Part shown: piece after piece, positions 16,965-36,306 of the stretch
Layout of the letters: each line of letters begins with the position of its first letter
Numbering within the stretch: the first letter of the stretch is position 1
Assembly (NCBI GenBank): GCA_938034975.1
Contig: CALHNI010000017.1
Location: forward strand, 5,130 to 69,129
From: Candidatus Goldiibacteriota bacterium
Lineage (GTDB): Bacteria > Oederibacteriota > PGYV01 > DYJU01
DNA length: 64,000 nucleotides
Reading direction: 5' to 3'
The notes under the pieces: model-generated
Database searches by the model: none
What the model was told of the DNA's origin: nothing
What the model saw: the letters and a program-made list of their open reading frames with translations, nothing else
Position numbers and translations under genes: made by a program

Positions 16965-17696
16965 ATGCAAATATTACCAGCGATTGATATAAGAAGAGGA
17001 AAATGTGTAAGGTTAATCCAGGGGGATGTGCGTGATGAGATAGTATATTCAAACGAGCCTTTACAAATGGCAAAATACTGGATTGGTAAAGGAGCAAGAT
17101 GGATACATGTTGTTGACATTGATGGTGCTTTAATTGGAAAACCTAAAAATATAGATGTCATAATTAAAATTATTAAATCCATAGATGCCAATGTTGAGGT
17201 TGGCGGAGGTATCAGAACAGAAACTGATATTAAAAGATATATTAGAGCAGGAGTAAAAAGAGTTATATTATCAACTTCTGCTATTCTTTCTGAAGAATTT
17301 TTGGATGATATGTTAAAAAAATACAAAGAAAAATTGGTAATTGCAGTAGATGTTAAAAATAATTATATTGCTATAAAAGGATGGAAGGATATGACAGAGA
17401 TTAAAATGCTTGATTTTATTCAAAAACTTGAAAAAAAAGATGTAAAAAGAATTATTTTTACTGATATAAAAAGAGATGGTGTTTTGAAAGGACCTAATTT
17501 TGCAAGTATAATGACAGTCCTTAAAAATACCAAAATGAAGGTTATAGTTTCTGGTGGTATAAGCAGAATGAAAAATATAAAAAAGTTATTAGAATATGAA
17601 AAAAAATATGAAAATTTGGAAGGAATCATAATTGGACAGGCATTATATAAAGGCACTCTTGATTTAAAAGAAGTAATTGAAATTGCGAAAGGATAA
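16965..17696 (+). CDS. hisA: ProFAR isomerase
   Basis: 243 aa. Motifs ILPAIDI, VGGGIR and GIIIGQALY. Confidence 0.93.
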
Positions 17697-17702
17697 AAAG
17701 CG

Positions 17703-18461: not shown

Positions 18462-18480
18462 TTTAAAAAGGAGTTTTAAA

Positions 18481-18876
18481 ATGAAATTTAATATGAAAAA
18501 ATTAAAATTTGATGAAAAAGGATTAATTCCGGTAATTGCACAGGATTATAAAACAAATGAAGTTTTAATGGTGGCATATATGAATAAACAGGCACTTTCA
18601 AAAACAATTAAAACAAAAAAAGCTCATTATTATAGCAGGTCTAGAAATAAATTATGGTTAAAAGGTGAGCAATCAGGAAATATTCAAAAGGTAAAAGAAA
18701 TTTACATTGATTGTGACAATGATACATTGCTTATGAAAATTGAACAAAAAGGAGGCGCTGCATGTCACACAGGTTATAAAAGTTGTTTTTTTACTAAGAT
18801 TACAAAAAATGGGGAACTTAAAATTAAAGGTAAAAAAATTTTTGATCCTGATAAAGTATATAGTAAAAAAGAATAG
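18481..18876 (+). CDS. hisI: Phosphoribosyl-AMP cyclohydrolase (HisI domain only, no HisE)
   Basis: 131 aa. Motifs [25 protein letters not shown] and [13 protein letters not shown]. Confidence 0.93.
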
Positions 18877-20953: not shown

Positions 20954-22438
20954 ATGTATCTGATCATTGTTTTTCTTTTTTTTCAATTTTCATATTTATA
21001 TGCAAATACAGATAGTGTCGCTGTGGTAAATAATTTATCTGTTGAAAATAATATTGAAACTGCAATTACTACTACTACTTTATCACTTACATTAAGTGCC
21101 AATGCAGATAACGTTTTGCCGTTAAGTGTTTCCGAAAAGGTTGAAATAAATTACGCTGTTGAAAAAATAGATTTTGATACAAACACAATAAATACAATAA
21201 TTATTAAATGGTTTGGAAAAGAAAACATGGAATTTTTTTATAATGTTTACAAAAAGAAAGAAGGGGATCCAGATTTTTATAAAATAAATGAAAATCCGCT
21301 TTCTGTAACTTTTTATGTTGATGCTGATGTAAATACAGGGACTATTTATTATTATAAAGTAGAAACGATTGATTCGTTAGGTAATACTTTTTTATCAAAA
21401 GAATATTCTGTGAGATCAACTGATTTATATTTGCCATCTCCCCCTTTTGGTTTTAAGGTCTATCAGGATGTTGAATGCTCTGTGCTAAAATGGAATTCTT
21501 CTTCAAAAGGAACGTTTGAAATAACAGGTTATATCATTTATCGTGGTGAAGATGCTGAAAGCATGACAAAGATAGCAGAAGTTAAACCGACAGAATTAAA
21601 ATTTAATGATGAAGAGGTAATACCGGCAAAAAAATATTATTATAAAGTAACGGCTGTTGATGAAAGAAGGAATGAATCAAATCCAACAGAAATATTGAGT
21701 TGTGTACCTTTTCCAATGCAAAGAACATGTCTTATTCTAATGCCAACTGCTTACAGGAATGATATTTTTAATAATTGGGGATTGAACATTGATTTGAGTT
21801 ATACATATTATATAGGTGGAATATTTGGTGAGCATAATTTATTTCCTTATGGCAATGATTCAGATTCTTTTTTAAAGGTAGGAGCATCAATTTTAAGTGG
21901 AGATGTTAAATTAAGTGGATTTAATGATGAAAATCAGATTCCATCAATTGCTTTTGGATATGTTTATACGATTTTAATGCAGGATAAATTTGGAAGTTCG
22001 CAGACAACCGGAGTTCAGGCATCTTTCACTGGCAAAGAAAAAGAATCAATGAAAATGATGGGTGGATTTTATAGCGTCATAAGCAAAAAGGTGTTTTTTG
22101 ATATGAACTTGCATACAGGTTATATATTGGGAGAACAGATAAATTTTATACCATATTTATCAAAGTATCTTACTTTGGAAGATAATATTGTAGCACATGG
22201 TTATTTTATAGGGTTTTCAAGAAAGATTTTTTCCAGGATGGGATTGAGAACCGAAATTATAGTTCCGGCAGAAAATAAAATTAACCAATCATTATTGATG
22301 CCGGTTCAATATTTAATAAACACATATATTGATAGATTTATTAATTTTAATATAAGTTATTTCCATTTTAATGGCGGTTATGTATGGCTTGGTTATATAA
22401 ATTTTAAATTTACAATATTCCCCAACCCTTATAAATAA
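20954..22438 (+). CDS. hypothetical secreted protein: two fibronectin-III-like modules + C-terminal beta-rich (possibly membrane-embedded) domain
   Basis: 494 aa with a signal-like N-terminus. Two repeats of the FN3-like pattern: Y..Y.K......F.KINE.P......VDADV..GTIYYYKV and GYIIYRGEDAESMTKIAEV..TELKFNDEEVIPAKKYYYKVTAVD. The C-terminal ~240 aa has alternating aromatic strands. Confidence 0.5.
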   Translation: MYLIIVFLFFQFSYLYANTDSVAVVNNLSVENNIETAITTTTLSLTLSANADNVLPLSVSEKVEINYAVEKIDFDTNTINTIIIKWFGKENMEFFYNVYKKKEGDPDFYKINENPLSVTFYVDADVNTGTIYYYKVETIDSLGNTFLSKEYSVRSTDLYLPSPPFGFKVYQDVECSVLKWNSSSKGTFEITGYIIYRGEDAESMTKIAEVKPTELKFNDEEVIPAKKYYYKVTAVDERRNESNPTEILSCVPFPMQRTCLILMPTAYRNDIFNNWGLNIDLSYTYYIGGIFGEHNLFPYGNDSDSFLKVGASILSGDVKLSGFNDENQIPSIAFGYVYTILMQDKFGSSQTTGVQASFTGKEKESMKMMGGFYSVISKKVFFDMNLHTGYILGEQINFIPYLSKYLTLEDNIVAHGYFIGFSRKIFSRMGLRTEIIVPAENKINQSLLMPVQYLINTYIDRFINFNISYFHFNGGYVWLGYINFKFTIFPNPYK

Positions 22439-22448: not shown

Positions 22449-23186
22449 ATGCTTTGTCATGAATGCGGTGCAGAAATAAAAGATTATTTTACAACTTGTT
22501 CATTATGCGGGAAAGTAATTGACAGGGAAAAAGCATTTAAAAATTTTGTAGAAAAGGGAGATGAGTTTTTCAGGTCTGATGAAATAGAAAAGGCAATTAT
22601 TGCATATAATAGAGCCCTTGATTATCAAAAAGATAATGAGGATTTATATATAAAATTAGGTAACGCCTACATGAAAAAAAATGATAAGCAAGCAGCAACT
22701 TATTATTTAAAAGCATTGTCTTTGAATTTTTACAACGATGTAACACACAATTACCTGATTGCTTTTTATTCTAAATTTAATAAATTAGAAGATTTAAAAT
22801 CATGGTATATTAAAAATAAGGAAAGATTTGATAATGAATTTATAAATAAATACATAAAAATAATTGATAATACTATTTTGTTCACAACAGAAAAAAAGAT
22901 AAAAATTGGAACAGAAGATAATGGCTTTTGGTGTGAGTTAAAAAAAAGTATGCGTATGTATTTGATGTTTAATATAATTTTCGGAGTTGTTTTTTTATTG
23001 CTCGTGGTTGGACTTTTATTTTCATATTTTTTGAAAATAAATGTGTCCTTTTTTCTTGTTTTTGCCGGAATGTTTTTGATAATGGGTATATTTTTTATAA
23101 CATTTAAAAAAATGGAAAATTTAAAAAAGAAAAAAGATAAGCATATTAATATTGAAGATTTTCTAAAAGAAACAAAAAAAGATTAG
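22449..23186 (+). CDS. Zinc-ribbon / TPR / double-TM protein
   Basis: 245 aa. N-terminal CHECGAEIKDYFTTCSLCG (CxxC-N11-CxxC). TPR-like AIIAYNRALDYQKDNEDLYIKLGNAYMKKNDKQAATYYLKAL. Two C-terminal TM helices. Confidence 0.6.
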   Translation: MLCHECGAEIKDYFTTCSLCGKVIDREKAFKNFVEKGDEFFRSDEIEKAIIAYNRALDYQKDNEDLYIKLGNAYMKKNDKQAATYYLKALSLNFYNDVTHNYLIAFYSKFNKLEDLKSWYIKNKERFDNEFINKYIKIIDNTILFTTEKKIKIGTEDNGFWCELKKSMRMYLMFNIIFGVVFLLLVVGLLFSYFLKINVSFFLVFAGMFLIMGIFFITFKKMENLKKKKDKHINIEDFLKETKKD

Positions 23187-23973: not shown

Positions 23974-24002
23974 TTGACTTTTACCATATTTTTCAGTATA
24001 AT
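23974..24002 (+). promoter_or_regulatory. sigma70-type promoter of the glycosylation locus (TTGACT-17-TATAAT)
   Basis: ttgact tttaccatatttttcag tataat, 17 nt after the H2 hairpin and about 44 nt upstream of the GTG start at 24046. Confidence 0.55.
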
Positions 24003-24045
24003 TTTTTTAATTTAATTTTAAAAAGTATATTCAGGAGGTAAAAAA

Positions 24046-26562
24046 GTGGCTACATTTTTTGGATATATTTTGCTTTGGTGGTTTTATTCGTTAATCATAG
24101 GATTAATCACATATCCTATAAGTTTTGTCCTTTTTAAAAAATCATACGAAAAAGGGTTCATGTTTACAAAAATAATTGGTCTGTTTTTAATATCTTATTT
24201 TTCCTGGCTTTTTGGATTTATTTATTTTTCCACAGGAACAATTTATCTTGTAATTTTTATACTCCTGGTTTTTTCTATATTTATTTTTATGTCAAATAAA
24301 AGTGAAATCCTTGAATTTTTGGCAAAAAACCCAGGGATAATTTTAATTACAGAATTATTTTATCTTTTTGTATTTATTCTTTATGCTGTTTTCAGAATGT
24401 ATCAGCCAGATATTATAGGCACTGAAAAATTTATGGATTTTGCATTTATGAATTCAATTGCCCGTGCTGATAAAATGCCACCTTATGATCCATGGATGTT
24501 TGGTGTTGATGCAAATGGGAAACAACTTTTTATAAGTTATTATTATTTTGGTTATCTTATGATGGCAATTATGATGAAATTAACAGGTATTCCAAATGGT
24601 TCAGCATACAACCTTGCTCTTACATATATTGTATCACTAACTTCAATTGCTATGGTTGGATTGCTTTTTAACCTTACAAAAAATTATTTGATAGGTTTTT
24701 TGGGAGTTGCTTTTCTTTTAATAATAAGCAATTTGGATGGTTTTATACAGGTTGTTCAGCATAATTTCAGTTTTGAAGGTTTTAACTGGTGGCGCTCGTC
24801 AAGGATTATTGATTATAAGGATTATGATGTTACTATTAATGAATTTCCATTTTTTTCTTTTTTGCTTGGGGACTTGCATCCGCATCAGATGGCTATGCCT
24901 TTTGTTTTGCTCGCTTTAAATATTGCACTTACTTTTATAAAGACAGATGAAAAAAATATTTTTGAGAAAAATTTTTCTAAAATGTCATTTCTTATTTTTG
25001 CGGGTTTGCTTTTGGGAGGATTGTGGTTTTTAAATAGCTGGGATTTTCCTACTTATTATTTTATAGTTGCTCTTGCCATACTATCATATAAATATTCATT
25101 ATATGAAAAAATTGATGACTGGATAAAAGATGCTTTAATTTCACTTGGTATTATTTTTATTGTTGCAATTATTGCTTATCTTCCTTTCACTGTTTTCTTT
25201 CAATCACAGGCAAAAGGTATCGGCCCTACCAAAGCAAATACCAAAATAACAGATTATTTTATTATTTACGGTATAATGCTATTTCCCATATTTTCATTTA
25301 TTATCTTCAGAATATTAAACTGGTTATATGCGCTAAGATTGCAGGGTATAGCAGGTACAAAGTTAAAAGCGAGAGCGCTTTATTGCCCGCGTTGTGGTGC
25401 GGTAATAAGAGAAGGTAAAAAAATATGCGGGCAATGCGGTTATATGATAAGTGGTGATGAGTTATTATTAGGTGGTGTTGATTTACCTGTGAAAAAATCA
25501 AACCAGACAATTCTTTCAATTTTTAAATTCTTTTTGGAACCGGATAAATTAAAAGATGGAAAAGTATATTTTATTTTTAGTGCTGTAATTTCTATTGCAA
25601 TAATTTTGGTTGTTTTTAAAACCATAATTGATAAACCCAACTTTGGAATTTTTTCAGGATTTATGGTATTTTTAATTTCTTTTGTACTATTGTTATTATT
25701 TACTAAAATTGAATTTAAAGAAAATCAGTTTGTATTAATACTTATTTTTACTGGTTTTTTAGTAACATTAGGCTGTGAACTTTTACATATAATAGACACG
25801 TTTTCAAGAGAAGGGCAGCATGCGCCCCTTGAAAGAATGAATACGGTTTTTAAATTTTATTTTCAGGCATGGATATTTTATTCTGTTGCTGCAGCGTATT
25901 CGTTTTTCTGGGTTACTCATTTTTATTTAAGGTTTAAACCAATCTATATCAGATATTCATGGATTTTTGTTTTTGTTATTTTAATTATAATGGGTCTTTT
26001 TTATCCAGTTGCGGCAACATATGTAAAAACAGGCGGACTTAAAGGATATATGACACTTGATGGGACTGAATTTTTAAAATTCAGGTCATACCAGGGCAGA
26101 ATGCCATCAGAAGGTGATTATAAAGCGATTGAATGGTTAAAGAAAAATGTTAAAGGTAATGATGTTATTTTAGAAGCATGGGGTAATGAATATACAGAAT
26201 ATGCAAGAATTACATCTTTTACAGGACTTCCTACTGTTTTAGGCTGGCCTGGGCACGAATTACAATGGCGCGGTTCATGGGATGAGGCAGGCAGAAGGCA
26301 GATGGATGTTAATAGAATATATGAAAGTCTTGATATAGAGGAAACAAAAAATTTAATTAAAAAATATAAAATTAAATATGTTTATGTGGGTGTGTTAGAA
26401 AAAGACAAATATATAGGAACATTAGCCAGAGATAAAGATGCAAGCAAAGAAAATATGGAAAAATATCTTGCAAAAAAACAGGCGCTTGAAAAATTTTCAC
26501 AGTTTATGGATATTGTTTATACAGATGCTGATTTAGTTACAATATATAAAGTTAGAGAATAA
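24046..26562 (+). CDS. Chlor_Arch_YYY / DUF2298 polytopic membrane protein (putative GT-C-fold glycosyltransferase) with an inserted zinc ribbon
   Basis: 838 aa, GTG start after SD ggaggt, and more than 15 hydrophobic helices. Has the diagnostic YYYxG motif (FISYYYFGYLMMA) of TIGR03662. A cytoplasmic-loop insertion carries YCPRCGAVIREGKKICGQCGY. A soluble C-terminal domain follows. Confidence 0.8.
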   Translation: MATFFGYILLWWFYSLIIGLITYPISFVLFKKSYEKGFMFTKIIGLFLISYFSWLFGFIYFSTGTIYLVIFILLVFSIFIFMSNKSEILEFLAKNPGIILITELFYLFVFILYAVFRMYQPDIIGTEKFMDFAFMNSIARADKMPPYDPWMFGVDANGKQLFISYYYFGYLMMAIMMKLTGIPNGSAYNLALTYIVSLTSIAMVGLLFNLTKNYLIGFLGVAFLLIISNLDGFIQVVQHNFSFEGFNWWRSSRIIDYKDYDVTINEFPFFSFLLGDLHPHQMAMPFVLLALNIALTFIKTDEKNIFEKNFSKMSFLIFAGLLLGGLWFLNSWDFPTYYFIVALAILSYKYSLYEKIDDWIKDALISLGIIFIVAIIAYLPFTVFFQSQAKGIGPTKANTKITDYFIIYGIMLFPIFSFIIFRILNWLYALRLQGIAGTKLKARALYCPRCGAVIREGKKICGQCGYMISGDELLLGGVDLPVKKSNQTILSIFKFFLEPDKLKDGKVYFIFSAVISIAIILVVFKTIIDKPNFGIFSGFMVFLISFVLLLLFTKIEFKENQFVLILIFTGFLVTLGCELLHIIDTFSREGQHAPLERMNTVFKFYFQAWIFYSVAAAYSFFWVTHFYLRFKPIYIRYSWIFVFVILIIMGLFYPVAATYVKTGGLKGYMTLDGTEFLKFRSYQGRMPSEGDYKAIEWLKKNVKGNDVILEAWGNEYTEYARITSFTGLPTVLGWPGHELQWRGSWDEAGRRQMDVNRIYESLDIEETKNLIKKYKIKYVYVGVLEKDKYIGTLARDKDASKENMEKYLAKKQALEKFSQFMDIVYTDADLVTIYKVRE

Positions 26563-26586
26563 TTAATTTAAAACGGAGGATAAAAA

Positions 26587-28500
26587 ATGCCAGAAAACAT
26601 CAAATGCCCAAAATGTGGAGCTGATAATCCAAAAGAAAATAAATTCTGTGATACCTGTGGTTATAAACTCGTTGCAAAAAAAGAACCAATAAAAACAGTA
26701 AAACCTGAAAAGAAAAAAATAATTATGACGGATGAACCAATTGCTGAAATTTCAAAAGAAAAACAAGAAAAAGAAGAAAGGACTGAAATATCAAAAGACT
26801 ATGTTGGAATTGAAAAAACAGGTATTGTGCTTAATTGGGAAACAATATGCTGGATTCTGATTGTTATAATTACAATACTTACAAGATTTTATGACCTTGG
26901 GACAAAACCTTTGCATCACGATGAAAGTATGCATGCTTTTTACGGCTGGAAATTATTTAAAGGTGAGGGTTATCAGTATAATCCAATGATGCATGGTCCT
27001 TTTCATTATCATGCAAATGCTTTGATATATTTTCTTTTTGGAACATCTGATTATACTTCAAGAGTTGCGCCTGCAATTTTTGGTTTAATAGGTGTTTTAT
27101 TAATTTATCTTTATAAACCATATATAGGTAAATTAGGAGCAGTTATAACTGCTTTTATTATGGCAATATCGCCAATGTTTATGTATCAGGCAAGATTTAT
27201 AAGAGAAGATATTTTTATGGCAGTGGATACCATAGCAATGGTTGTTGGTCTTTTCAGATACATAGATACAAAAAAGCCTGCATGGCTTTATCTTGCAGCA
27301 ACAGGGCTTGCGTTTTCCTGGGCAACAAAAGAAGCAACTTATATAACTGGATTTATTTTCTTTACATTTTTATTTTTCAGATGGGTTTGGGAATATTCTT
27401 TAAGGCATATCCCTGCCAAATTTCAGGAAGAAAATAAAATATATGGAACTGTTAATTATCTTTTCGGCAAAGGGCTTCCTGTTTTAGGTTGGTCGTTGGC
27501 AATATTTTTTGGTATAAATCTTGTTTTATATACTACTCTTTTTTCTCACTGGAAAGGTTTTATTGATGCATTTACTGCTTCATTGACATACTGGCTCGGC
27601 CAACATGGTGTGGAAAGAGGCAGTCAACCAATTTATTATTACTGGCTTCTTATACCTTTTTATGAAATGTTGCCTTTCCTTTTCACTTTAATAGCAACAG
27701 TTTATTATCTTATTGTTCCTGAAAAAAGGACATTTTTTAATCTTTTTACAATTTACTGGTGGATAATGTCAATGATAATTTATTCCTGGGCTGGCGAAAG
27801 GATGCCATGGTTATCAATTCATCCACTTGCACCTATGATAATTCTTTCCGGTAAATTTATAGCAGAAATGATTTTAAGAGTTGATTGGGGTTTGGCAAGG
27901 CAACTTGGTATTGTAACAGCTATTATTCTTGCTATGGGTTCAATTCATGGGGCTATAAATCTGTGTTTTTATGGAGCTGGCGCATCACCAACTGAATCAT
28001 TCGTATATGTTCAATCATCAGTTGACGTAACTTATGTTGCAAAAAAAATATACAATGTTGCAAAAGCATTAAAAGGAGAAAAATGGGATAGTCAGGAATT
28101 CAGAAATTTTGATCCTTATGATATGGAAATTGTGGTTGAAGATTATTGTTCCTGGCCTTTTGCGTGGTATTTGAGGGATTTCAGAAGGGTTGCATATCCA
28201 CCTAAAAATATACCTGAATCAGATATAGGTAAACCTATTATTTTATCAGGTATAGAAGAAGCAGCACCAGGACATGATAAAAGAGTAAAGGAACTTTTAG
28301 AGCCACATTATATTGGCATAAGATATAAATTAAGAGAATGGTGGGCGCCTGATGTAAATAAATTTATGCGTGCATCATTAAGAGATAAAATAAGAATGTT
28401 GTGGAGAAGATTTATTTACAGAGAGGTCTGGAATGAACTTGGTTCATATGATTTTGTAGTATATATAAGGAAAGATTTAGAAAAATACTGGAGAGACTAA
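26587..28500 (+). CDS. TIGR03663-family PMT/ArnT-like GT-C membrane protein with N-terminal zinc ribbon
   Basis: 637 aa. N-terminal CPKCGADNPKENKFCDTCG. The family-invariant DE and HGP occur in LHHDESMHAFYGW...MMHGPFHYH. Multiple TM helices. Confidence 0.8.
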   Translation: MPENIKCPKCGADNPKENKFCDTCGYKLVAKKEPIKTVKPEKKKIIMTDEPIAEISKEKQEKEERTEISKDYVGIEKTGIVLNWETICWILIVIITILTRFYDLGTKPLHHDESMHAFYGWKLFKGEGYQYNPMMHGPFHYHANALIYFLFGTSDYTSRVAPAIFGLIGVLLIYLYKPYIGKLGAVITAFIMAISPMFMYQARFIREDIFMAVDTIAMVVGLFRYIDTKKPAWLYLAATGLAFSWATKEATYITGFIFFTFLFFRWVWEYSLRHIPAKFQEENKIYGTVNYLFGKGLPVLGWSLAIFFGINLVLYTTLFSHWKGFIDAFTASLTYWLGQHGVERGSQPIYYYWLLIPFYEMLPFLFTLIATVYYLIVPEKRTFFNLFTIYWWIMSMIIYSWAGERMPWLSIHPLAPMIILSGKFIAEMILRVDWGLARQLGIVTAIILAMGSIHGAINLCFYGAGASPTESFVYVQSSVDVTYVAKKIYNVAKALKGEKWDSQEFRNFDPYDMEIVVEDYCSWPFAWYLRDFRRVAYPPKNIPESDIGKPIILSGIEEAAPGHDKRVKELLEPHYIGIRYKLREWWAPDVNKFMRASLRDKIRMLWRRFIYREVWNELGSYDFVVYIRKDLEKYWRD

Positions 28501-28552
28501 AATATATTATATAATCTACTAAATTCAGTTTATTAAAAATGGAGGTTTATTT

Positions 28553-29545
28553 ATGATAGATTTATCCTTAATGTCAAAGCAGGAAAAGATTATTATTATT
28601 TCTTTACTTGTTGCTATTTTCCTTTTACTTGTATTAATATTAACTCCTGCAAATTTCAGACAGGATAAAAAAGTAATGGCACCTGCTAATATTTTATCAA
28701 GTGGTGGTGGTCCAGGTGAAGGAAATGGATATTTTCAGACACCTCGCGATATTGTGGTTGATAAGGAAGGCAATATTTATATTGTTGATTCAAGGAATCA
28801 CAGAATACAGAAATTCAGCAGTGAAGGAGTTTTTTTAACAACCTGGGGTAAAGAAGGTGATAAACCAGGACAGTTTAAAGAACCATGTGGTATAGACATT
28901 GGACCAGATGGAAATATTTATGTGGCAGATACTTGGAATGGCAGAGTTCAGATTTTTGATTCAACTGGTAAATTTATAAAAGAGTTTGGAAAAGAACGTG
29001 GAATGTGGGGACCGCGGGATCTTGCCGTAGATAGAGATGGTAATATTTATGTGTGCGACACAGGCTGGTGTAAAATTGAAAAATTTGATAAAAATGGTGT
29101 TTATATAACTACTTTTGGTAAAAAAGGCGGTGGAACTTTGCCCGGGGAATTTAAAGAACCATTTGGAATAAAACAGGGACCAGATGGAAATTTATATGTT
29201 ATAGATAGGAAAAATTTCAGAATACAGATTTTAACCACAGAGGGTAAATTTATAAAAGATATAAAAATTGATGGCTGGTCAGAAAAACAAATAGATGGTG
29301 GTTGCCTTATGGAACCATATCTTGATATTGATAGCAAACGTGGGTTGATTTATGTTACAGATTCAACAAATCACAGGGTGTTAAGGTATAATTTAAATGG
29401 GAAAGATAAAAAAATATTTTTAAAAGATGAACGTGGTATGAATATGTTTGCCTGTCCGCTTTCAGTTGCTGTTGCCGGGGATGGACGCATTTTGGTAACT
29501 GATGCAGGTGTTGCAAAAATTATAACATTTATTGATAAAAATTAA
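28553..29545 (+). CDS. Membrane-anchored NHL-repeat beta-propeller protein 1
   Basis: 330 aa with an N-terminal TM helix. Six NHL-like repeats (PRDIVVDKEGNIYIVDSRNHRIQKF, PCGIDIGPDGNIYVADTWNGRVQIF, PRDLAVDRDGNIYVCDTGWCKIEKF and others). Confidence 0.85.
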   Translation: MIDLSLMSKQEKIIIISLLVAIFLLLVLILTPANFRQDKKVMAPANILSSGGGPGEGNGYFQTPRDIVVDKEGNIYIVDSRNHRIQKFSSEGVFLTTWGKEGDKPGQFKEPCGIDIGPDGNIYVADTWNGRVQIFDSTGKFIKEFGKERGMWGPRDLAVDRDGNIYVCDTGWCKIEKFDKNGVYITTFGKKGGGTLPGEFKEPFGIKQGPDGNLYVIDRKNFRIQILTTEGKFIKDIKIDGWSEKQIDGGCLMEPYLDIDSKRGLIYVTDSTNHRVLRYNLNGKDKKIFLKDERGMNMFACPLSVAVAGDGRILVTDAGVAKIITFIDKN

Positions 29546-29558
29546 AGGAGGTTGCTCT

Positions 29559-30572
29559 ATGTCTAATAAAAAATTAAAAAAAAGGAAAAAAATAAAAAAA
29601 TCCGGGAAGAAAAAGGGCAAAAGTTTCATAGTTTTTTTAATAACTTTAATTATCATCATCGGGTTTATTGCAATTTCAAAAATTAAAAAAGGAGATATAA
29701 TAAAAAATATACCATCAGAGATTATTTCAGTTATTGGAAAATCAGGAGATAAAAAAGGAGAGATAGGTTCTCCACGTGGGATTGCAGTTTCTCAGGATAA
29801 TTATCTTTATGTGACAGATCTTAAAAATAATAAGGTGATTAAATTTAAAACAAATGGCGAATTTGTAATGGAATGGGGAACACAGGGAAATAAAAGAGGA
29901 GAATTTAAAGAACCTTCAGGTGTTGCAGTTGATAAAGAAAATTATGTTTATGTTGCTGATGCATGGAATGGCAGGATTCAAAAATTTACTTCTGACGGTA
30001 AATACATTCTTGAAATAGGTGGTGTAAGTGCGAGTTTTTACAGTCCAAGAAATGTTGCTGTAAATAAATACGGAATTCTTTTCGTAGCAGATACAGGGAC
30101 ATCCAGAATACACAGATTTGATACAGAAGGGACAAGGATTGGAAATCCTGTAGGTGGGAAGGGAGTTGCAATAAATAATTTTGATGAAGTTTTTGGAATT
30201 GCGTTTGATTCAACTGGCAGGATATATGCTGCTGATCCTGGAAACAGGAGAGTTGTTGTTTTAACAGCAGATTTAAAACCGCTTGCCCAGATAAAAATAA
30301 AACCCTGGCTTGAAATAAAATCTTCCTGGCCAATGCTTGCAATTGATTCAAGGGACTATTTGTATGTTGTTTCAACGAACACACAGGATATATACATATA
30401 TGACACTAAAAATCCAAAATTTAAATACATAGCAACAATTAAGAACGATAATGCAGGTAAACCATTATTTGCAAGCCCATTAGGAATAGCCATAGATGCC
30501 AATGATATAATTTATGTATCTGACAGCGGGAAAAATCAGATTATTAAATTGCAACCAATATTTTCAAGGTAA
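29559..30572 (+). CDS. Membrane-anchored NHL-repeat beta-propeller protein 2
   Basis: The ORF opens at 29532, but SD aaaggagg precedes ATG 29559 (MSNKKLKK). Lys-rich N-terminus plus TM helix. NHL repeats (PRGIAVSQDNYLYVTDLKNNKVIKF, PSGVAVDKENYVYVADAWNGRIQKF, PRNVAVNKYGILFVADTGTSRIHRF and others). Confidence 0.85.
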   Translation: MSNKKLKKRKKIKKSGKKKGKSFIVFLITLIIIIGFIAISKIKKGDIIKNIPSEIISVIGKSGDKKGEIGSPRGIAVSQDNYLYVTDLKNNKVIKFKTNGEFVMEWGTQGNKRGEFKEPSGVAVDKENYVYVADAWNGRIQKFTSDGKYILEIGGVSASFYSPRNVAVNKYGILFVADTGTSRIHRFDTEGTRIGNPVGGKGVAINNFDEVFGIAFDSTGRIYAADPGNRRVVVLTADLKPLAQIKIKPWLEIKSSWPMLAIDSRDYLYVVSTNTQDIYIYDTKNPKFKYIATIKNDNAGKPLFASPLGIAIDANDIIYVSDSGKNQIIKLQPIFSR

Positions 30573-30588
30573 AATTGCAGGGCAAAAT

Positions 30589-31863
30589 TTGAGTGAAACA
30601 AAGGATCATCTTTTAAAAGATTCATTTATTCTTTTTTTAGCTACCAGTATAGTAAATTTATCTAATTTTATTTTTCATATGTATGTTACAAGAAAACTTT
30701 CTCCTTCTGATTATGGTGCTCTTGCCACTTTGCTTGCTTTGGTTATAATTTTTATAATGCCAGCCCAGGCACTTCTAATGACAGTTGCCAAAAAGGTTTC
30801 TATATATAAAGCCCATAATCAATTTGAAAAAATTCATGGTTTATTTAAAAAAACAACAAAATGGTTTTTGATTCTAGGTATGTTTTATTTTATTTTTTTT
30901 ATGGTTTTTTCCGGAGCAATAATGAAATTTTTTAATATGGACGATGTTGTTTTAATTGTAATTCTTGCATTTATATCAATTGTTGCAATTTTACTACCTG
31001 TTGTAAGGGGGATTTTGCAGGGACTCCAGAAATTTGCCAGATTCGGATTGAATTTGATTTCTGATGCCGTGTTCAGATTATTAAGTGTTATATTATTTAC
31101 AGGTCTTGGATTTGGTTTAAGGGGAGCACTTTTAAGTTCTTTATTTTCTGCTCTTTTAGCATATGTCCTTGGATTATTTATGCTTTCTGAATTTTTAAAA
31201 ATAAAAGAAGAAAATATACAATTAAAAAAGAGAGAATTTTTCGGATATGCATTGCCTGTATTTTTTTCAATGGTGGCTTTTTCAATATTAAGTTATATGG
31301 ATCTTTTTATAGTCAAACATTTTTATGAAAAAGAACAGGCAGGACTTTATGCCGTAACATCTATAATAGGAAAAGCATTTCTTTATTTCCCTATGGCTAT
31401 TGCCATGGCTTTATTCCCTAAAGTTTCTGAAAATTTCGAACTAAATAAAAATACAAAAGGTCTGTTGATTAAAAGTGTATTATTAACTGGATTAATAAGT
31501 TTTACAGGTTTTTTATTTTGTTATTTCTTTCCGGAATTTGTAATTAAACTATTAACCGGTGGAAAAAAATATCTGGAAATTACAGGGGTAGTGAAAATTT
31601 TCGGATTGGCAATATTGCCGCTTGTTCTTTTAAATGTAATTATAAATTATTTACTTGCCATACACAGATATTTTTTTATTTTTATAATGTATTCTGGTAT
31701 AATAGTATATGCAGGTTTATTGTGGTTTTTTCATAAAACATTTTATCAGGTTATTTTTATTTTGTTTTTAGTAAATTTGATTATATTTATATTAAGTTTT
31801 TGTTCAATTTTTATTTATGGAACGGTTAAAAAAAATTTAAAGGAGAAAATAGTTGGAATTTAA
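30589..31863 (+). CDS. Wzx-like polysaccharide/oligosaccharide flippase (MOP superfamily)
   Basis: The ORF is open from 30514 (449 aa) but overlaps the upstream gene by 59 nt. TTG 30589 (LSETKDHLLKDSF) lies just after the upstream stop. About 12 TM helices with the polysaccharide-biosynthesis-protein pattern. The exact start is uncertain. Confidence 0.75.
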   Translation: MSETKDHLLKDSFILFLATSIVNLSNFIFHMYVTRKLSPSDYGALATLLALVIIFIMPAQALLMTVAKKVSIYKAHNQFEKIHGLFKKTTKWFLILGMFYFIFFMVFSGAIMKFFNMDDVVLIVILAFISIVAILLPVVRGILQGLQKFARFGLNLISDAVFRLLSVILFTGLGFGLRGALLSSLFSALLAYVLGLFMLSEFLKIKEENIQLKKREFFGYALPVFFSMVAFSILSYMDLFIVKHFYEKEQAGLYAVTSIIGKAFLYFPMAIAMALFPKVSENFELNKNTKGLLIKSVLLTGLISFTGFLFCYFFPEFVIKLLTGGKKYLEITGVVKIFGLAILPLVLLNVIINYLLAIHRYFFIFIMYSGIIVYAGLLWFFHKTFYQVIFILFLVNLIIFILSFCSIFIYGTVKKNLKEKIVGI

Positions 31864-32581
31864 GAAACTCTCAATTTTAATGCCAATGTATAATGAAGAA
31901 ATTTATGCAGCAGCAAATATTCTTGAAACTGATGAATATTTTAAAAATTTAAATATTTCTTATGAAATCATAGTTGTTGATGACGGTTCGGTAGATTTAA
32001 CATATAATAAGGTAATTTCTGTTAAGAAAGAGCATATCAGGATATATAAACTTTCAATAAATCAGGGAAAAGGACAGGCATTAAAAGAAGCTTTTAAACA
32101 AAGTTCAGGAGATTTAATAATGTTTTTAGACGGGGATTTGGATATAAAACCAGAACAATTTCAAATTCTTTTTGAGATTATGAAAAAGGAAAATGCAGAT
32201 GTAGTTATAGGTTCAAAAAGGCATCCCCAATCAATTTTACATTATCCATTAAAAAGAAAGATACTTTCCATAGGTTATTTTTTTATTGTAAAAATTCTTT
32301 TTGGTTTACCAATTCATGACACACAAACCGGTATTAAAATTTTTAAAAGAGAGGTTCTTGAAAAAATTTTTCATAAAGTTTTGATAAAAAGATATGCTTT
32401 TGACCTTGAATTACTTATACTTGCCCACCATTATGGTTTTAAAATTGCAGAAAGTCCTGTTGTTGTTGATTATAAAGGCAAATTCGGGCATATTACTTTA
32501 AAAACTATTTTTCAGATATTCTGGGATACAATGGCAATCTTTTACAGATTATATATATTAAAATATTATGATAAAAGGTAA
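31853..32581 (+). CDS. GT2 glycosyltransferase, polyprenol-phosphate sugar synthase-like (DPM1/GtrB-like)
   Basis: 242 aa, TTG start after SD aaggag. Motifs LSILMPMYNEE, VVDDGSVD and FLDGDLD (DxD). Soluble, with no TM tail. Confidence 0.85.
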   Translation: MEFKKLSILMPMYNEEIYAAANILETDEYFKNLNISYEIIVVDDGSVDLTYNKVISVKKEHIRIYKLSINQGKGQALKEAFKQSSGDLIMFLDGDLDIKPEQFQILFEIMKKENADVVIGSKRHPQSILHYPLKRKILSIGYFFIVKILFGLPIHDTQTGIKIFKREVLEKIFHKVLIKRYAFDLELLILAHHYGFKIAESPVVVDYKGKFGHITLKTIFQIFWDTMAIFYRLYILKYYDKR

Positions 32582-33581
32582 TTTACCAAATAAAATGGAT
32601 AAAAAAGTATCAATTATAATACCTGTAAAGAAAATAAATGATTATATAAAAGAATCTCTTAAATTTATAAATAAATTAAATTATGAAAAAAATCTGATAG
32701 AAGTTATTATTTTGCCTGATGAAAAGGAAAATTTTTCAGATAAATTTCCTTTTACCTTAAAAATTATTGAAACAGGACCTGTATATCCTGGTATAAAAAG
32801 AGATATAGGGTATAAAAACAGCACAGGAGAAATTATTGCATTTATTGATGATGATGTTTATCCGTCTGAAAACTGGCTTTTATCAGCGGTTAAAATTTTT
32901 GAAAAAGATGAAAATATTGGGGCAATAGGCGGTCCGGCAATAACGCCTCCTTCTGATTCTTATTTCCAGAAAGTAAGTGGGTTTATTTATTCATCTTTCT
33001 TAGGAGGTGGAAATTATTCATATCGCTATTTGCCGCAAAAAGCACGGCAGGTTGATGATTATCCCTCCTGCAATCTTATTATAAGAAAAGATGTTCTTGA
33101 TAAAATAAATGGATTTAATACTGAATTCTGGCCAGGAGAAGATACTGTCATTTGCCTTAAAATAATAAAAAATTTAAAAATGAAAATTTTTTATGATCCA
33201 AATGTATTAGTTTATCATCATCGCAGAAAATTTCCAGCAGGTCATTTGAATCAGGTAAAAAGTTATGGGTTGCACAGGGGTTATTTTGTAAAAAAATTTC
33301 CTGAAACATCTTTCAGATTATCATATTTTTTTCCTTCTTTGTTTGTTTTATATTTGTTAAGTTTGTTAGTTGTGTTACCCTTTATAAAAGGGTTATTTTA
33401 TTTGATATGGCTTTTACCTTTTTTATTTTACATAATTTTTTTAATTATTGATGGAATAAGATTTTATAAATATTTACCTTTTGTTATGGTAGGTATTTTT
33501 ATAACGCATATTTTTTATGGTGTTTATTTTATTAAGGGTTTATTAGCCAAAAGATTAAAAGAGGAGACAGAAAATAAATGA
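32568..33581 (+). CDS. GT2 glycosyltransferase with C-terminal TM helices
   Basis: 337 aa. Motifs VSIIIPVKK, FIDDDVYP (DxD) and FWPGEDTV. Hydrophobic C-terminal third. Start possibly ATG 32595. Confidence 0.85.
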   Translation: MIKGNLPNKMDKKVSIIIPVKKINDYIKESLKFINKLNYEKNLIEVIILPDEKENFSDKFPFTLKIIETGPVYPGIKRDIGYKNSTGEIIAFIDDDVYPSENWLLSAVKIFEKDENIGAIGGPAITPPSDSYFQKVSGFIYSSFLGGGNYSYRYLPQKARQVDDYPSCNLIIRKDVLDKINGFNTEFWPGEDTVICLKIIKNLKMKIFYDPNVLVYHHRRKFPAGHLNQVKSYGLHRGYFVKKFPETSFRLSYFFPSLFVLYLLSLLVVLPFIKGLFYLIWLLPFLFYIIFLIIDGIRFYKYLPFVMVGIFITHIFYGVYFIKGLLAKRLKEETENK

Positions 33582-35026
33582 AAATAATGATATCTTATCC
33601 GCCATTAAAAGGAGATGGCTCTCCTACTCTTGGTCAGAACAGGCAATTCCAGTGGTTTCATAATCCTTCATTTATTTACCCTATGGTGCCTGCTTATGCA
33701 GCAACTTTACTTAAAAATTCAGGTTACGATGTTGTATGGAATGATTCCATAGCAGAAAAATTATCATGGGAAGAATATATAAAATTACTTGAAAAAGAAA
33801 AGCCGGATTTAATTTTTTATGAAACCAAAACGCCTGTTGTAAAACAACACTGGGAAATAATAAAAAAGGTAAAAGATATTTTGCCGGATGTTAAAATAGT
33901 TCTGGCAGGGGATCATGTTACCGCTTTACCTGAAGAAAGTATGATAAATTCAAAAACTGATTTTATCATAACAGGTGGGGATTATGATTTTCTTATTTTA
34001 AATCTTGTAAAATGGATTGAAAGAAAAGAAGATTTAGAACCTGGTATATGGTATAGAGAAAACGGAGAAATTAAGAATACCGGTGCTTTTATTTTAAAAC
34101 ACGATTTAAATTCATTACCTTTTATAGACAGGGAACTTACCAAATGGAAGTTATACGGTGAGAAATTTTTTAAATATTCACCCTATACTTATACAATGAT
34201 AGGCAGGGATTGTCCCTGGGCAAAATGTACTTTTTGCTCCTGGACAACCCTGTATCCTAATTTTAGAACAGCAAGTCCTGAAAAATTACTTGATGAGATA
34301 GGGCTTTTAATTCAAAAATATGGTATAAGAGAAATATTTGATGATACTGGAACTTTTCCAAGAGGAGAATGGCTTAAAAAATTTTGTGAGGGGATGATAG
34401 AGAGAAAATATAAAATTTCATTTATGGCTAATTTCAGGTTTGATTACATAAATGAAAAAATTGCTCCTTTGATGAAAAAAGCCGGATTCAGGTTATTGAA
34501 ATTTGGATTGGAATCAGCGAACCAGAAGACACTTGACAGATTATGTAAAGGAACCAAAGTTGAAGACATAGAAAAAGGATGCAAAATTGCAAAAGATGCT
34601 GGGATTGGCGTGCATCTTACAATCATGGTTGGTTATCCATGGGAGACCAGGGATGATGCAATGCGGACTCTTGATATGGCAAAAAAGTTACTTGATAAAG
34701 GATTGGCTGATATGCTTCAATCAACGGTTGTAATTGCATACCCTGGGACACCACTTTATAAACAAGCAGTTGAAAATAACTGGCTGAGATTTCTACCAGG
34801 CGAGTGGGAAAAGTTTGATATGACATATCCAGTGTTTAAATTTCCTGATATGAAACCCGAAGAAGTAATGAAGATATGTGATGATATTTATAAAGCTTTT
34901 TTAACACCAAGATTCATTATGCGGCAGATTTTAAGTATAAGGTCTTTTGAGGATTTTGCTTTTTTATTCAAAGCAGCTAAAGCAGTTGCAGGTCATATTC
35001 TTGATTTTATGAGGAAAAAAGAATAA
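33578..35026 (+). CDS. B12-binding-domain radical SAM enzyme
   Basis: 482 aa. N-terminal Rossmann-like B12-binding region (PDLIFYETKTPVV...VLAGDHVTALPEE). Cys cluster GRDCPWAKCTFCSW. Downstream rSAM core (FGLESANQKTLDRL). Confidence 0.85.
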   Translation: MKIMISYPPLKGDGSPTLGQNRQFQWFHNPSFIYPMVPAYAATLLKNSGYDVVWNDSIAEKLSWEEYIKLLEKEKPDLIFYETKTPVVKQHWEIIKKVKDILPDVKIVLAGDHVTALPEESMINSKTDFIITGGDYDFLILNLVKWIERKEDLEPGIWYRENGEIKNTGAFILKHDLNSLPFIDRELTKWKLYGEKFFKYSPYTYTMIGRDCPWAKCTFCSWTTLYPNFRTASPEKLLDEIGLLIQKYGIREIFDDTGTFPRGEWLKKFCEGMIERKYKISFMANFRFDYINEKIAPLMKKAGFRLLKFGLESANQKTLDRLCKGTKVEDIEKGCKIAKDAGIGVHLTIMVGYPWETRDDAMRTLDMAKKLLDKGLADMLQSTVVIAYPGTPLYKQAVENNWLRFLPGEWEKFDMTYPVFKFPDMKPEEVMKICDDIYKAFLTPRFIMRQILSIRSFEDFAFLFKAAKAVAGHILDFMRKKE

Positions 35027-36055
35027 ATGAAGGAATTCCCTTTTGTTTCCGTTATAATACCTGTTTATAATTCTGAAAAGTTTATATTTGATTGCTTGTT
35101 TGCAATTCAAAATCAGGATTATCCAAAAGATAAATTAGAAATAATAATTCCTGATGGTGGTTCTCATGATGCAACTTTAAAAATTATAGATTCATTTAAA
35201 ACAAAAATGGATATAACTGTTTGTGATAACCCTTTAAAAACAGGAGAGGCAGGTAAATCTGTTGGTGTTGACAAAGCAAAAGGAGATATAATAGCCCTGA
35301 TTGATAGTGATAATATAATGCCGGATAATGATTATATTAAAAATATGGTTGAACCATTTTTAATTGAAAAAGATATAATCGGGACAGAACCGATTTTTTT
35401 TCTTTTCAGGGAAAAAGATAAACCGCTTACAAAATATTTTGCAATGTCAGGAGTAAATGATCCGCTTTGTATTTTTATCGGCAATTATGACAGATTTAGT
35501 TATATTACAGGGAAATGGACCGGATTTAAACTTAATACAAACGATAAAGGGAAATATCTATTAATTGAACTTGATGAAAAAAAAATACCAACAATAGGAG
35601 CAAACGGAACTTTTTTAAAAAAAGAATATTTATTAAAAACATCTTACAAACCATATTTGTTTGACATAGATGCAGTTTATGAAATTTTAAAAAGTGGTAA
35701 AAATAAATTTGTAAAAGTAAAAACAGGAATTATACACATTTATTCTCCTGATTTGAAATCATTTGTAAAAAAACAATCAAGAAGGATTTATGATTTTTTG
35801 TTTTTTTCAAAGCAAAAAAAACGAATTTATCCATGGAATAAATTACCTGCAAAAGGTATTGTTTTATTTGTAATTTCATGCATAACGATAATACCACTTT
35901 TAATACAAATGATGAGTGGTTTTTTAAGAAAAAAAAGATGGGAGTGGTTATTTCATCCAATTGTTTGCTGGTTAACTTTGTTTACATATGGCTGGGTTTT
36001 TTTAAGAACAATAATTACAAAAAAAATAATAATAAAAGACAGAAGCAAATGGTAA
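35027..36055 (+). CDS. GT2 glycosyltransferase with C-terminal TM helices
   Basis: 342 aa. Motifs VSVIIPVYNSEKF, IIPDGGSHD and LIDSDNIM (DxD). Hydrophobic C-terminus. Confidence 0.85.
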   Translation: MKEFPFVSVIIPVYNSEKFIFDCLFAIQNQDYPKDKLEIIIPDGGSHDATLKIIDSFKTKMDITVCDNPLKTGEAGKSVGVDKAKGDIIALIDSDNIMPDNDYIKNMVEPFLIEKDIIGTEPIFFLFREKDKPLTKYFAMSGVNDPLCIFIGNYDRFSYITGKWTGFKLNTNDKGKYLLIELDEKKIPTIGANGTFLKKEYLLKTSYKPYLFDIDAVYEILKSGKNKFVKVKTGIIHIYSPDLKSFVKKQSRRIYDFLFFSKQKKRIYPWNKLPAKGIVLFVISCITIIPLLIQMMSGFLRKKRWEWLFHPIVCWLTLFTYGWVFLRTIITKKIIIKDRSKW

Positions 36056-36091
36056 AGAAATTTTTTAAAAGTTAAACTGCTTTTATAACTT

Positions 36092-36266
36092 CCGTAAAAA
36101 CTCATTTTCTAACGCGTTTTTACATCAAATAAAACTCCTTAATACATATATCAAGTTCAGGTATAAAACTTAATAATACAGAATTACCTCTGTATCCTTT
36201 GTATGTCATCTCTGCTTCATTTTTCTCTGTCCTGAAGATCGCATTAAAAGAGTGCGATTTTCAGGG
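36092..36266 (+). repeat. Uncoupled family-1 hairpins: H2 (36092-36123) and H1 (36231-36266) separated by unique sequence
   Basis: H2 is ccgtaaaaactcattttctaacgcgtttttac. H1 is cctgaagatcgcattaaaagagtgcgattttcaggg, followed by acttatttttt. The family core motif is absent between them. Confidence 0.65.
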
Positions 36267-36278: not shown

Positions 36279-36306
36279 TTGACATTTGATATTAAAGTGA
36301 TATAAT
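36279..36306 (+). promoter_or_regulatory. sigma70-type promoter (TTGACA-16-TATAAT) upstream of the LysM gene
   Basis: ttgaca tttgatattaaagtga tataat, 13 nt after the H1 hairpin. SD aggagg precedes ATG 36336. Confidence 0.5.

Follow-up and report, generated by a model that had tools for sequence, protein, structure and literature searches.

A nine-gene operon joining DUF2298 and Agl23-family GT-C-fold proteins to NHL propellers: a candidate outer-face glycosylation system in a Candidatus Goldiibacteriota contig

We analyzed a 64-kb window of the Candidatus Goldiibacteriota contig CALHNI010000017.1 (GC content 29%); "the window" means the whole of this stretch of DNA. It carries an operon of nine genes, g1 to g9 (Table 1), headed by a protein of the DUF2298/TIGR03662 family (g1) and a protein of the TIGR03663/Agl23 family (g2). 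Both proteins were modelled with the GT-C fold of glycosyltransferases, and comparison with other DUF2298 loci showed that g1 to g4 and g6 are a conserved core, while g5 and g7 to g9 are lineage-specific add-ons. We lean modestly to the reading that the operon encodes a glycosylation machine of the outer face of the inner membrane, in which g6 would charge a lipid carrier, g2 and/or g5 would translocate the product, g1 and probably g2 would transfer the sugar, and the NHL propellers would handle the acceptor. An earlier, preliminary description of this DNA had proposed a glycosylation operon of this kind; its observation is confirmed, and its interpretation is partly supported.

The families of the first two genes were examined with hidden Markov models (HMMs). 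As had been proposed, g1 matched TIGR03662 and g2 matched TIGR03663, both well over the cutoffs (g1, 484.1 bits against a cutoff of 300.25, profile positions 3–714 of 727; g2, 292.3 bits against 126.25, profile positions 3–434 of 435). In addition, g1 scored 324.6 bits with PF10060. The motifs noticed earlier in the two proteins proved to be family-wide. YYYxG (SYYYFG at g1 amino acids (aa) 164–169) was found in 120/120 homologues, with Y165–Y167 and G169 invariant in 41 sequences, and the DE and HGP motifs of g2 (HHDESMH at aa 110–116, MHGPFHYH at aa 135–142) were found in 117 of the 120 homologues. When 40 diverse g2 sequences including NHL fusions were aligned, DE was invariant, D112, E113, H136, G137, R159, R203 and R206 were conserved and P138 was nearly invariant; H111, H116, R203, R206 and D208 are invariant alongside DE. 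The DUF2298 family itself is large, with 10,243 clusters at 50% identity, 5,161 of them at E ≤ 1e-30.

The preliminary description had also suggested that both proteins would prove to be GT-C enzymes, and AlphaFold2 (AF2) models agree with this, since both proteins model confidently with that fold. For g1 (predicted local distance difference test (pLDDT) 88, predicted TM-score (pTM) 0.91), Foldseek against the PDB placed the C-mannosyltransferase DPY19 first (E = 3e-7), followed by STT3 (2e-6), AglB (5e-6) and AftA (3e-5), then ArnT, Pmt and ALG3/12; the seven neighbours at E ≤ 1e-3 are GT-C enzymes exclusively. The protein has about 16 predicted transmembrane (TM) helices and an extracytoplasmic C-terminal globular domain (aa ~663–838), which alone resembles the globular domain of AglB (3vu0, TMt 0.60). 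For g2 (pLDDT 87.8, pTM 0.83), all 22 matches at E ≤ 1e-3 are GT-C enzymes: ArnT (2.6e-8, TMt 0.58), AglB, STT3, ALG12 (TMt 0.63), ALG9, PglB and Pmt4, then Emb/Aft. Membership of g1 among the oligosaccharyltransferases (OSTs) was considered and rejected, as the protein has neither an STT3 match in Pfam or NCBIfam nor a WWDYG/WWDxG motif. As far as the models go, g1 appears OST-like in fold only.

An acidic loop of catalytic type on the periplasmic side had been named as the thing to look for, and a candidate for it was located in g2. The match of the g2 sequence profile to ArnT (E = 2.8e-7) is confined to the N-terminal 150 residues, and there HDES of g2 aligns with PDEG of ArnT in the first periplasmic loop, directly after TM1 (TM1, aa 84–101; D112–E113 next). 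In ArnT the loop after TM1 carries the catalytic Asp, and in PMTs it carries a DE motif. Threading the helices from the Zn-ribbon anchor described below, the DE loop of g2 would lie outside the cytoplasm. The same topology would put outside the cytoplasm the C-terminal domain of g1 and all its invariant charged residues (E127, K128, D148, R253, E266, D276, H278, H280, D333, D584 and R597). Of these invariant residues, E127, D148 and D276 lie in predicted outer loops. In NCBIfam no ArnT equivalog matched g2, which was hit only by the generic PMT_2 model (44 bits). In the C-terminal outer domain of g2 we also noticed an invariant W585–W586 in REWWAPD (aa 583–589, window 28333–28353), which superficially recalls the WWDYG of OSTs; it is not colinear with WWDYG, and the likeness is probably a coincidence.

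Besides the fold, g1 and g2 have a Zn-ribbon in common. It is an insert in g1 (aa 446–466, window 25381–25443, a Zn_Ribbon_1 match) and the N-terminus of g2 (aa 6–28, window 26602–26670), and in both it should be cytoplasmic because its flanks are rich in Lys and Arg. It is the sole similarity between the two proteins (g1 aa 443–474 against g2 aa 3–35, hhalign E = 4e-7); profile–profile comparison detected no homology between their membrane domains, so g1 and g2 are not recent paralogues. A possible role of the ribbons is dimerisation or docking. A CxxC...CxxC pattern was seen in 73/120 g1 homologues and 48/120 g2 homologues, and a protein with a Zn-ribbon and TPR is encoded at 22449–23186, just 5' of the operon.

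The next two genes encode the propellers. The earlier claim of two TM-anchored six-bladed NHL proteins holds: each has one N-terminal TM segment and six copies of the blade motif D-x-x-N-x-R-[IV]-x-x-F. Both g3 and g4 also match the SGL/gluconolactonase, Vgb lyase, arylesterase and ScyF families.

We then explored which genes accompany DUF2298 in 86 loci, 53 of them informative for g5 and g7 to g9. A g2-like gene lay downstream of DUF2298 in 62/72 loci, and in 54/72 it was immediately adjacent. A second DUF2298 gene was present upstream in 40 of 61 loci. NHL was detected within 10 kb in 26/53 loci (as separate genes in 15, as fusions in 13). The other genes of the operon were less frequent (g6-like, 9/53; g5-like, 7/53; g7 and g8, 4/53 each; g9, 3/53), and the loci with g5, g7, g8 and g9 all belong to relatives at ≥39% g1 identity. 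The expectation that NHL, Wzx, GT2 and radical SAM genes would travel with the gene pair was therefore borne out for NHL, which is separate in Goldbacteria-like and FCPU426 loci and fused to TIGR03663 in Chloroflexota, and was not borne out for Wzx and the GT2–radical SAM–GT2 genes, which are lineage-specific.

The closest named relatives of g1, g2 and g8 are proteins of Candidatus Goldiibacteriota metagenome-assembled genomes (MAGs), at 60–82% identity. The best genome match, locus L007 (GC 28.6%), has the nine genes in order, with 91% identity in g1 and 82–85% nucleotide identity over the operon. L007 (DYJU01000020.1) was deposited as 'Candidatus Methylomirabilis sp.', but its GC content is low and its proteins cluster with those of Candidatus Goldiibacteriota; the deposited name seems to be a mistake of taxonomy or binning. 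The nine-gene order was also found in L001, L002 and L012, at 62%, 55% and 53% g1 identity. At 39–40% identity, L003 and L004 (an FCPU426 MAG) contain DUF2298, an Agl23-like protein, three propeller-like proteins, a 1,200-aa PMT_2 + PA14 protein and a Polysacc_synt gene. At 35% identity, L005, L006 and the FCPU426 loci L013–L016 contain a long DUF2298 protein or a PMT_2–DUF2298 fusion, DUF2298, two to three NHL proteins and a small GT2; g6-like GT2s recur beside DUF2298 in FCPU426-type loci. The usual arrangement in Chloroflexota is a long DUF2298 protein (1,500–2,100 aa), a DUF2298 protein (~850 aa), a weak PMT_2-type protein (~590 aa) and often a TIGR03663+NHL fusion (~1,050–1,300 aa). Unbiased clustering of all open reading frames (ORFs) in these loci gave as further Chloroflexota partners another PMT_2 GT-C protein (18 loci), MprF-type LPG_synthase_TM proteins (18), GT4 (15), methyltransferases (11) and NDP-sugar epimerases/dehydratases (9).

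Fusions link the core components pairwise. In many Chloroflexota, an NHL propeller is fused to the C-terminal side of TIGR03663; P0177 and P0192, for example, score 287 and 275 bits with TIGR03663 over residues 25–596 and carry the propeller at about 720–1,000. PMT_2 and TIGR03662 (479 bits) are joined in a single polypeptide at L005:4734-9242, and P0361 (2,434 aa) contains PMT_2 and two DUF2298 copies. Because of these pairwise fusions among the three core components and the Zn-ribbon common to g1 and g2, a physical complex can be argued for, and g1 to g4 probably act as one. Giant DUF2298 proteins of 2,000–2,700 aa (P0361–P0370 and others; L006 3447–9947; L013–L016) have an N-terminal PMT_2 and two DUF2298 modules, that is, three GT-C modules.

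On the donor side, g6 is a candidate for the soluble GT2 of the DPM1/GtrB type that had been read into gene 6. All its closest solved relatives are polyprenyl-phosphate sugar synthases (Pyrococcus Dol-P-Man synthase 5mlz, E = 1.6e-17 over residues 4–221; ArnC, 1.7e-12; GtrB, 1.6e-11). Its NCBIfam equivalogs are all under cutoff, PgfS (62 bits), ArnC (60) and AglJ (49) by a wide margin, and PpgS too. The protein has no clear TM segment, only one internal hydrophobic stretch, and lacks the C-terminal TM helices of GtrB/ArnC. The Wzx-like flippase was recognized again in g5, which matches Polysacc_synt and MatE and has many hydrophobic segments. The Pfam scan of the window covered ORFs of ≥150 aa, with the ORFs 2004–2456, 16328–18461 and 59856–60386 (−) outside it. 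Neither the scanned ORFs nor the flanking regions of L001 and L002 yielded a priming phosphoglycosyltransferase, Wzy or WaaL. Hence the earlier statement that a glycan is built by the GT2s is not supported in its first step, and the canonical Wzy/WaaL ligase that was thought might do the transfer instead is also missing from the scanned ORFs. Because the relatives of g6 are polyprenyl-phosphate sugar synthases and none of these three genes was found, the monosaccharide branch (undecaprenyl-phosphate-hexose made by g6, then flipping, then GT-C transfer) appears to be the best-supported part of the preliminary model. The oligosaccharide branch (g7, g9, g8 and g5) is plausible, its first step having no gene in the scanned window.

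Two observations in other loci touch the donor side. An MprF-type LPG_synthase_TM protein (~360–400 aa) recurs beside DUF2298 clusters in L017, L048 and 16 other Chloroflexota loci; it could be a flippase of lipid-linked sugars there, replacing the Wzx-like g5. In L005, a gene of the UbiA prenyltransferase family lies directly 5' of the PMT_2–DUF2298 fusion (3852–9242), and a polyprenyl synthase gene lies a few kb 3' (17568–18554). This layout recalls the mycobacterial decaprenyl-phosphate-arabinose (DPA) donor pathway beside aftA–embCAB, and it hints that some DUF2298 systems may use polyprenyl-phosphate pentose donors.

Two membrane GT2s and a B12-radical SAM gene had been seen at the end of the operon, and the domain and TM predictions agree (Table 1). 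Both GT2s, g7 and g9, resemble generic enzymes of glycan elongation of the TarS/chondroitin synthase type. The cluster motif of g8 is CX4CX2C, instead of the canonical CX3CX2C, in 120/120 homologues (GRDCPW[AG][KR]CTFCSWTT). Its closest solved relative is the sugar 1,2-diol dehydratase AprD4 (6fd2), in which the aligned motif is CX3CX3C. NCBIfam gave HpnJ (175 bits, cutoff 578) and BchE (150 bits), both far under cutoff. A hopanoid role of the HpnJ kind was rejected for g8 on account of this score and since hopanoid families are absent from the Pfam matches of the scanned window ORFs. The conservation of g8 is far above that of g1 and g2, with 62–67% identity to proteins of Latescibacterota and Omnitrophota. 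In all four outside lineages, a g7-like GT2 with the same domains lies directly 5' of the g8 orthologue, usually with overlapping codons, and these four loci have no DUF2298, Agl23 or PMT_2 nearby; in L091 the pair sits inside a classical Wzx-type polysaccharide cluster. The GT2–radical SAM pair (window 32568–35026; L089 9027–11452; L090 9005–11452; L091 8272–11455) is an autonomous two-gene cassette present in other phyla. We read g7–g8 as a portable cassette that would add a sugar and radically modify it, recruited into the operon by the Goldbacteria-like lineage. Six-bladed propeller genes of the SGL type (SMP-30/gluconolactonase-like) occur near GT2–radical SAM in three of the four unrelated loci (L089 11603–12637; L090 2534–5902 and 13394–14416; the JGI 3300072015 locus). 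They may echo g3/g4 by coincidence or through a functional link between propellers and radical SAM-modified sugars.

The nine genes are on one strand and closely packed, as had been reported (overlaps or gaps of at most 52 nt): the measured spacings between successive genes from g1 to g9 are +24, +52, −14, −59, −11, −14, −4 and 0 nt. The −59 overlap between g4 and g5 is probably a start-codon artefact, because a g5 start at TTG 30589 matches the 424-aa orthologue in L007 and leaves a gap of +16 nt. The consensus promoter noted upstream of g1 is present, as a consensus match only, in an AT-rich region where such sites occur at shuffle frequency (85 observed, 83 expected). Because this count equals the expectation, the match alone proves nothing, and the argument is one of position: in 14 kb there are three sites of ≥11/12, two of them in the intergenic regions that bracket the operon. 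A 12/12 match at 36279–36306 lies 3' of the terminator and would serve the next gene. With a promoter upstream and a 16-bp-stem terminator downstream, the unit was set at 23974–36266, and a single transcription unit is the best explanation of the locus.

Table 1. Features of the operon, with coordinates in the window.
Feature	Position	Strand	Basis and details
Candidate sigma-70-type promoter, TTGACT-17-TATAAT	23974..24002	+	11/12 consensus match; 356-nt intergenic gap; 44 nt 5' of g1 start
AGGAGG ribosome-binding site of g1	24033..24038	+	Read from sequence; 7 nt before GTG 24046
g1, DUF2298/TIGR03662 (Chlor_Arch_YYY) GT-C-fold membrane protein, 838 aa	24046..26562	+	HMMs, AF2 model, Foldseek
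g2, TIGR03663/Agl23-family GT-C-fold membrane protein, 637 aa	26587..28500	+	HMMs, AF2 model, Foldseek
g3, membrane-anchored six-bladed NHL beta-propeller, 330 aa	28553..29545	+	NHL 141 bits; one TM aa 13–31; six blade motifs
g4, membrane-anchored six-bladed NHL beta-propeller, 346 aa	29532..30572	+	NHL 104 bits; Lys-rich N-terminus; one TM aa 31–49; six blade motifs
g5, Wzx-like MOP-superfamily flippase	30514..31863 (probable start TTG 30589, 424 aa)	+	Polysacc_synt (PF01943) 64 bits; MatE (PF01554) 37 bits
g6, small GT2, candidate polyprenyl-phosphate hexose synthase, 242 aa	31853..32581	+	DPM1/ArnC/GtrB-like closest solved relatives
g7, GT2 with two C-terminal TM segments, 337 aa	32568..33581	+	Glycos_transf_2, Glyco_trans_2_3
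g8, B12-binding-domain radical SAM enzyme, 482 aa	33578..35026	+	PF02310 36.8 bits; PF04055 64.7 bits; CX4CX2C at C212, C217, C220
g9, GT2 with two C-terminal TM segments, 342 aa	35027..36055	+	Glycos_transf_2 73 bits; closest solved relatives TarS, chondroitin synthase
Intrinsic terminator closing the operon	36230..36266	+	16-bp stem, 6 GC pairs, T-run

Gene content, families, modelled GT-C folds, motif conservation, synteny statistics and fusions were computed here; what we infer is which donor is used, how g1 and g2 share the work, that a complex forms and what the acceptor is. In the mechanism that we favour, g6 would charge undecaprenyl phosphate at the cytoplasmic face with a hexose taken from a nucleotide sugar. 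The lipid-linked sugar would cross the membrane by way of g2, which would use the activity reported for Agl23, and/or by way of the Wzx-like g5. There g1, and probably also g2 through its outer-loop Asp-Glu, would move the sugar from the lipid carrier to an acceptor in the envelope, held or presented by the NHL propellers. In the Goldbacteria-like lineage, the add-ons g5 and g7–g9 may assemble a second lipid-linked glycan, alter it chemically and flip it by way of Wzx, and g1 could then transfer this glycan en bloc.

Several points weigh against this mechanism. The only characterised member of TIGR03663 is reported to be a flippase rather than a transferase (PMC11182771). The Foldseek TM-scores of g1 and g2 are moderate (0.33–0.63). 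The g1 sequence profile found no solved relative among all PDB chains, so its placement in GT-C comes from structure comparison. The literature search on DUF2298, PF10060, TIGR03662 and Chlor_Arch_YYY returned no functional study of any DUF2298 protein, and the search on TIGR03663 returned none under that family identifier. The oligosaccharide branch is incomplete, as no priming phosphoglycosyltransferase is in the operon or the scanned window. NHL turned up in no more than about half of the loci, and propellers of the NHL/SGL kind can act as enzymes instead of binding modules. The label 'function unknown', which the preliminary description gave to the gene pair, thus remains apt for g1 and no longer for g2, whose family now bears the NCBIfam name flippase activity-associated protein Agl23.

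That name leads to an alternative for g2, in which it would be a flippase or scramblase only and g1 the sole transferase, the GT-C fold of g2 being a lipid-carrier-binding scaffold that lost or never had activity. In proteoliposomes, purified Haloarcula Agl23 moves M5GN2-PP-lipid across the membrane, and it suppresses yeast rft1 (PMC11182771). However, the structural neighbours of g2 are all glycosyltransferases, and no transporter fold with meaningful probability was found among its Foldseek matches. The ArnT/PMT-like DE together with invariant H111, H116, R203, R206 and D208 is hard to explain for a scramblase, and the operon already has the Wzx-like g5. Loss of the terminal sugar with build-up of lipid-linked hexose would be equally expected from a deleted transferase. 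We therefore think it unlikely that g2 only flips; because of its structural neighbours, its invariant DE and the operon's own Wzx, the g2 family may rather be a transferase with a lipid-carrier groove that is also able to scramble. The propellers allow another reading, which we consider rather improbable: they could be enzymes of the lactonase or lyase kind acting on the sugar or the acceptor, or they could themselves be the substrates of glycosylation. The matches of g3 and g4 to enzyme families and the SGL propellers near GT2–radical SAM speak for it, and bacterial glycosyltransferase genes often adjoin the genes of their targets; but in many Chloroflexota a propeller is fused C-terminally to TIGR03663, which is more in keeping with a subunit or domain than with a substrate.

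For the acceptor, we lean, only tentatively, to a secreted or surface protein, because the best fold matches of g1 are protein-modifying enzymes, its C-terminal domain is AglB-like and the setting of Agl23 is that of an S-layer glycoprotein. We give about the same odds to a polysaccharide or glycolipid, since AftA, ArnT and Emb are among the fold matches and that Chloroflexota clusters hold several GT-C genes. In its full form, this alternative has the GT-C enzymes assembling or decorating an envelope polysaccharide or glycolipid in the manner of Emb, Aft or ArnT, with g1 possibly an analogue of a WaaL/Wzy-type ligase, and in that form it seems to us somewhat doubtful. Chloroflexota loci, which hold as many as four GT-C genes together with genes for GT4, epimerase and methyltransferase, do resemble cell-wall polysaccharide clusters, the DPA-like layout of L005 would suit it, and the host is a diderm with LptF/G whose operon has Wzx without Wzy/WaaL. 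Against it stand the protein-modifying matches and AglB-like domain of g1. The family occurs in monoderm Chloroflexota, diderm candidate phyla and archaea, which argues that lipid A is not the ancestral acceptor, and a PMT_2 gene beside lptFG (42877–44322) is the better ArnT-type candidate. NHL propellers are not known as carbohydrate-binding modules. Modification of lipid A in the manner of ArnT was set aside as the main role because of that separate PMT_2 gene and because the families of g1 and g2 are conserved in Chloroflexota, which are taken as monoderm and free of lipopolysaccharide (LPS). An ordinary O-antigen or exopolysaccharide cluster, with g5–g9 Wzx/Wzy-dependent, the priming, polymerase and ligase genes elsewhere and g1–g4 unrelated neighbours, is very improbable. 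The gene types of g5–g9 are typical of such clusters, and the pair in L091 lies in one, but g1–g9 are translationally coupled between one promoter and one terminator, and their order is kept down to 53% g1 identity. Moreover, g5- and g6-like genes remain with the g1–g4 core at 35–40% identity, where g7–g9 are absent, and Wzy, WaaL and a priming transferase were not met in the scanned ORFs.

The favoured outer-face mechanism has parts in common with several known systems. In Haloarcula hispanica, the Dol-P-hexose synthase Agl22, a GT2, is paired with Agl23, a TIGR03663 protein like g2, for extracellular glycan synthesis (PMC11182771). The present locus differs in being bacterial and from a diderm, in coupling g2 to DUF2298, two NHL proteins, Wzx and GT2–radical SAM–GT2, and in the N-terminal Zn-ribbon of g2. 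A three-part precedent is AglD/AglR/AglS of Haloferax volcanii, in which a GT2 charges polyprenyl phosphate with hexose, a Wzx-like protein takes part in translocation and a transferase acts at the outer face (PMC3871713), without NHL partners or a second GT-C protein. The ArnC/ArnE-F/ArnT system of lipid A and the GtrA/GtrB/Gtr(type) system of O-antigen are likewise three-component polyprenyl-phosphate-sugar systems, with g6 comparable to ArnC/GtrB and g2 to ArnT by its aligned DE loop. In contrast to them, the locus has another type of flippase, adds a DUF2298 GT-C protein and propellers, and its g2 falls below any ArnT equivalog. The OSTs STT3/AglB/PglB and DPY19 are the best structural matches of g1, including the AglB globular domain, but g1 lacks their STT3 Pfam match, their WWDYG and detectable sequence homology, and it has the cytoplasmic Zn-ribbon insert. 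Pmt1–Pmt2, EmbA–EmbB and the TMTC/PMT enzymes with acceptor-binding TPR or MIR domains offer a likeness in placing two GT-C proteins side by side, sometimes fused, and in having an outer non-catalytic domain. The partner here is a six-bladed NHL propeller, and the complex would follow by inference. We know of no description to date of such a propeller as a GT-C partner, and our literature search for GT-C with NHL found nothing.

The principle of a polyprenyl-phosphate sugar used by an outer-face GT-C enzyme is already known, and the co-occurrence of TIGR03662 and TIGR03663 is on record. What the present analysis adds is the structural placement of DUF2298 as an STT3/DPY19/AftA-like GT-C protein, as judged from models, and, from sequence comparison, the NHL propeller as a third conserved and sometimes fused component, the Zn-ribbon, predicted to be cytoplasmic, common to g1 and g2, and the division between core and add-ons. 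DUF2298, a large family for which we found no experimental characterisation, now adjoins the N-glycosylating and C-mannosylating enzymes in the GT-C superfamily, and its recurring partners are defined as an Agl23/PMT_2-type GT-C protein, an NHL propeller and a polyprenyl-phosphate sugar synthase. From this comes a model of how the envelope may be glycosylated in Chloroflexota, in FCPU426 and Goldbacteria-like bacteria, and probably in archaea as well. The analysis also bears on the Rft1 flippase debate, in which Agl23 is cited as evidence, yet its family has a transferase fold and an invariant catalytic-loop motif. The boldest version makes DUF2298 a novel kind of outer-face glycosyl- or oligosaccharyl-transferase, in obligate complex with an Agl23-family GT-C protein and an acceptor-selecting NHL propeller. 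It would then perform a protein glycosylation undescribed in bacteria and widespread in Chloroflexota, several candidate phyla and archaea, and the 'flippase' activity of Agl23 would be a side property of a GT-C transferase. We regard this version as unlikely.

Other genes of the window lie outside the operon. The third GT-C gene, PMT_2 (481 aa, 42877–44322, minus strand), has no NCBIfam match and is arranged head-to-tail with two LptF/LptG permease genes (40623–42877, minus strand). It is a candidate ArnT-like modifier of LPS or lipid A, and the presence of the Lpt genes indicates that the organism is diderm. Two giant secreted proteins of the glycanase type follow: a protein of 1,519 aa with GH9, CelD_N and a WbsX-like region (44903–49462), and a protein of 1,327 aa with CBM4_9 and a CIA30-like region (49539–53522). 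The preliminary description had named the Thr-rich linkers of these two and the LysM protein of the window as candidate acceptors. No Thr-rich linker was found in the LysM protein. Thr-rich TNT/TPT linkers are present in the GH9 protein (aa 612–662, 809–913 and 1229–1406) and in the CBM protein (aa 1083–1216), and as possible acceptors they are a lead, not evidence; the Goldbacteria single-cell paper contains nothing on GH9 linkers or glycosylation. The giant glycanases fit a cellulolytic, Goldbacteria-like affiliation. Finally, a 494-aa ORF at 20954–22438, without a Pfam family, shows a weak, sub-threshold resemblance to part of the exoglucanase CbhB (28 bits).

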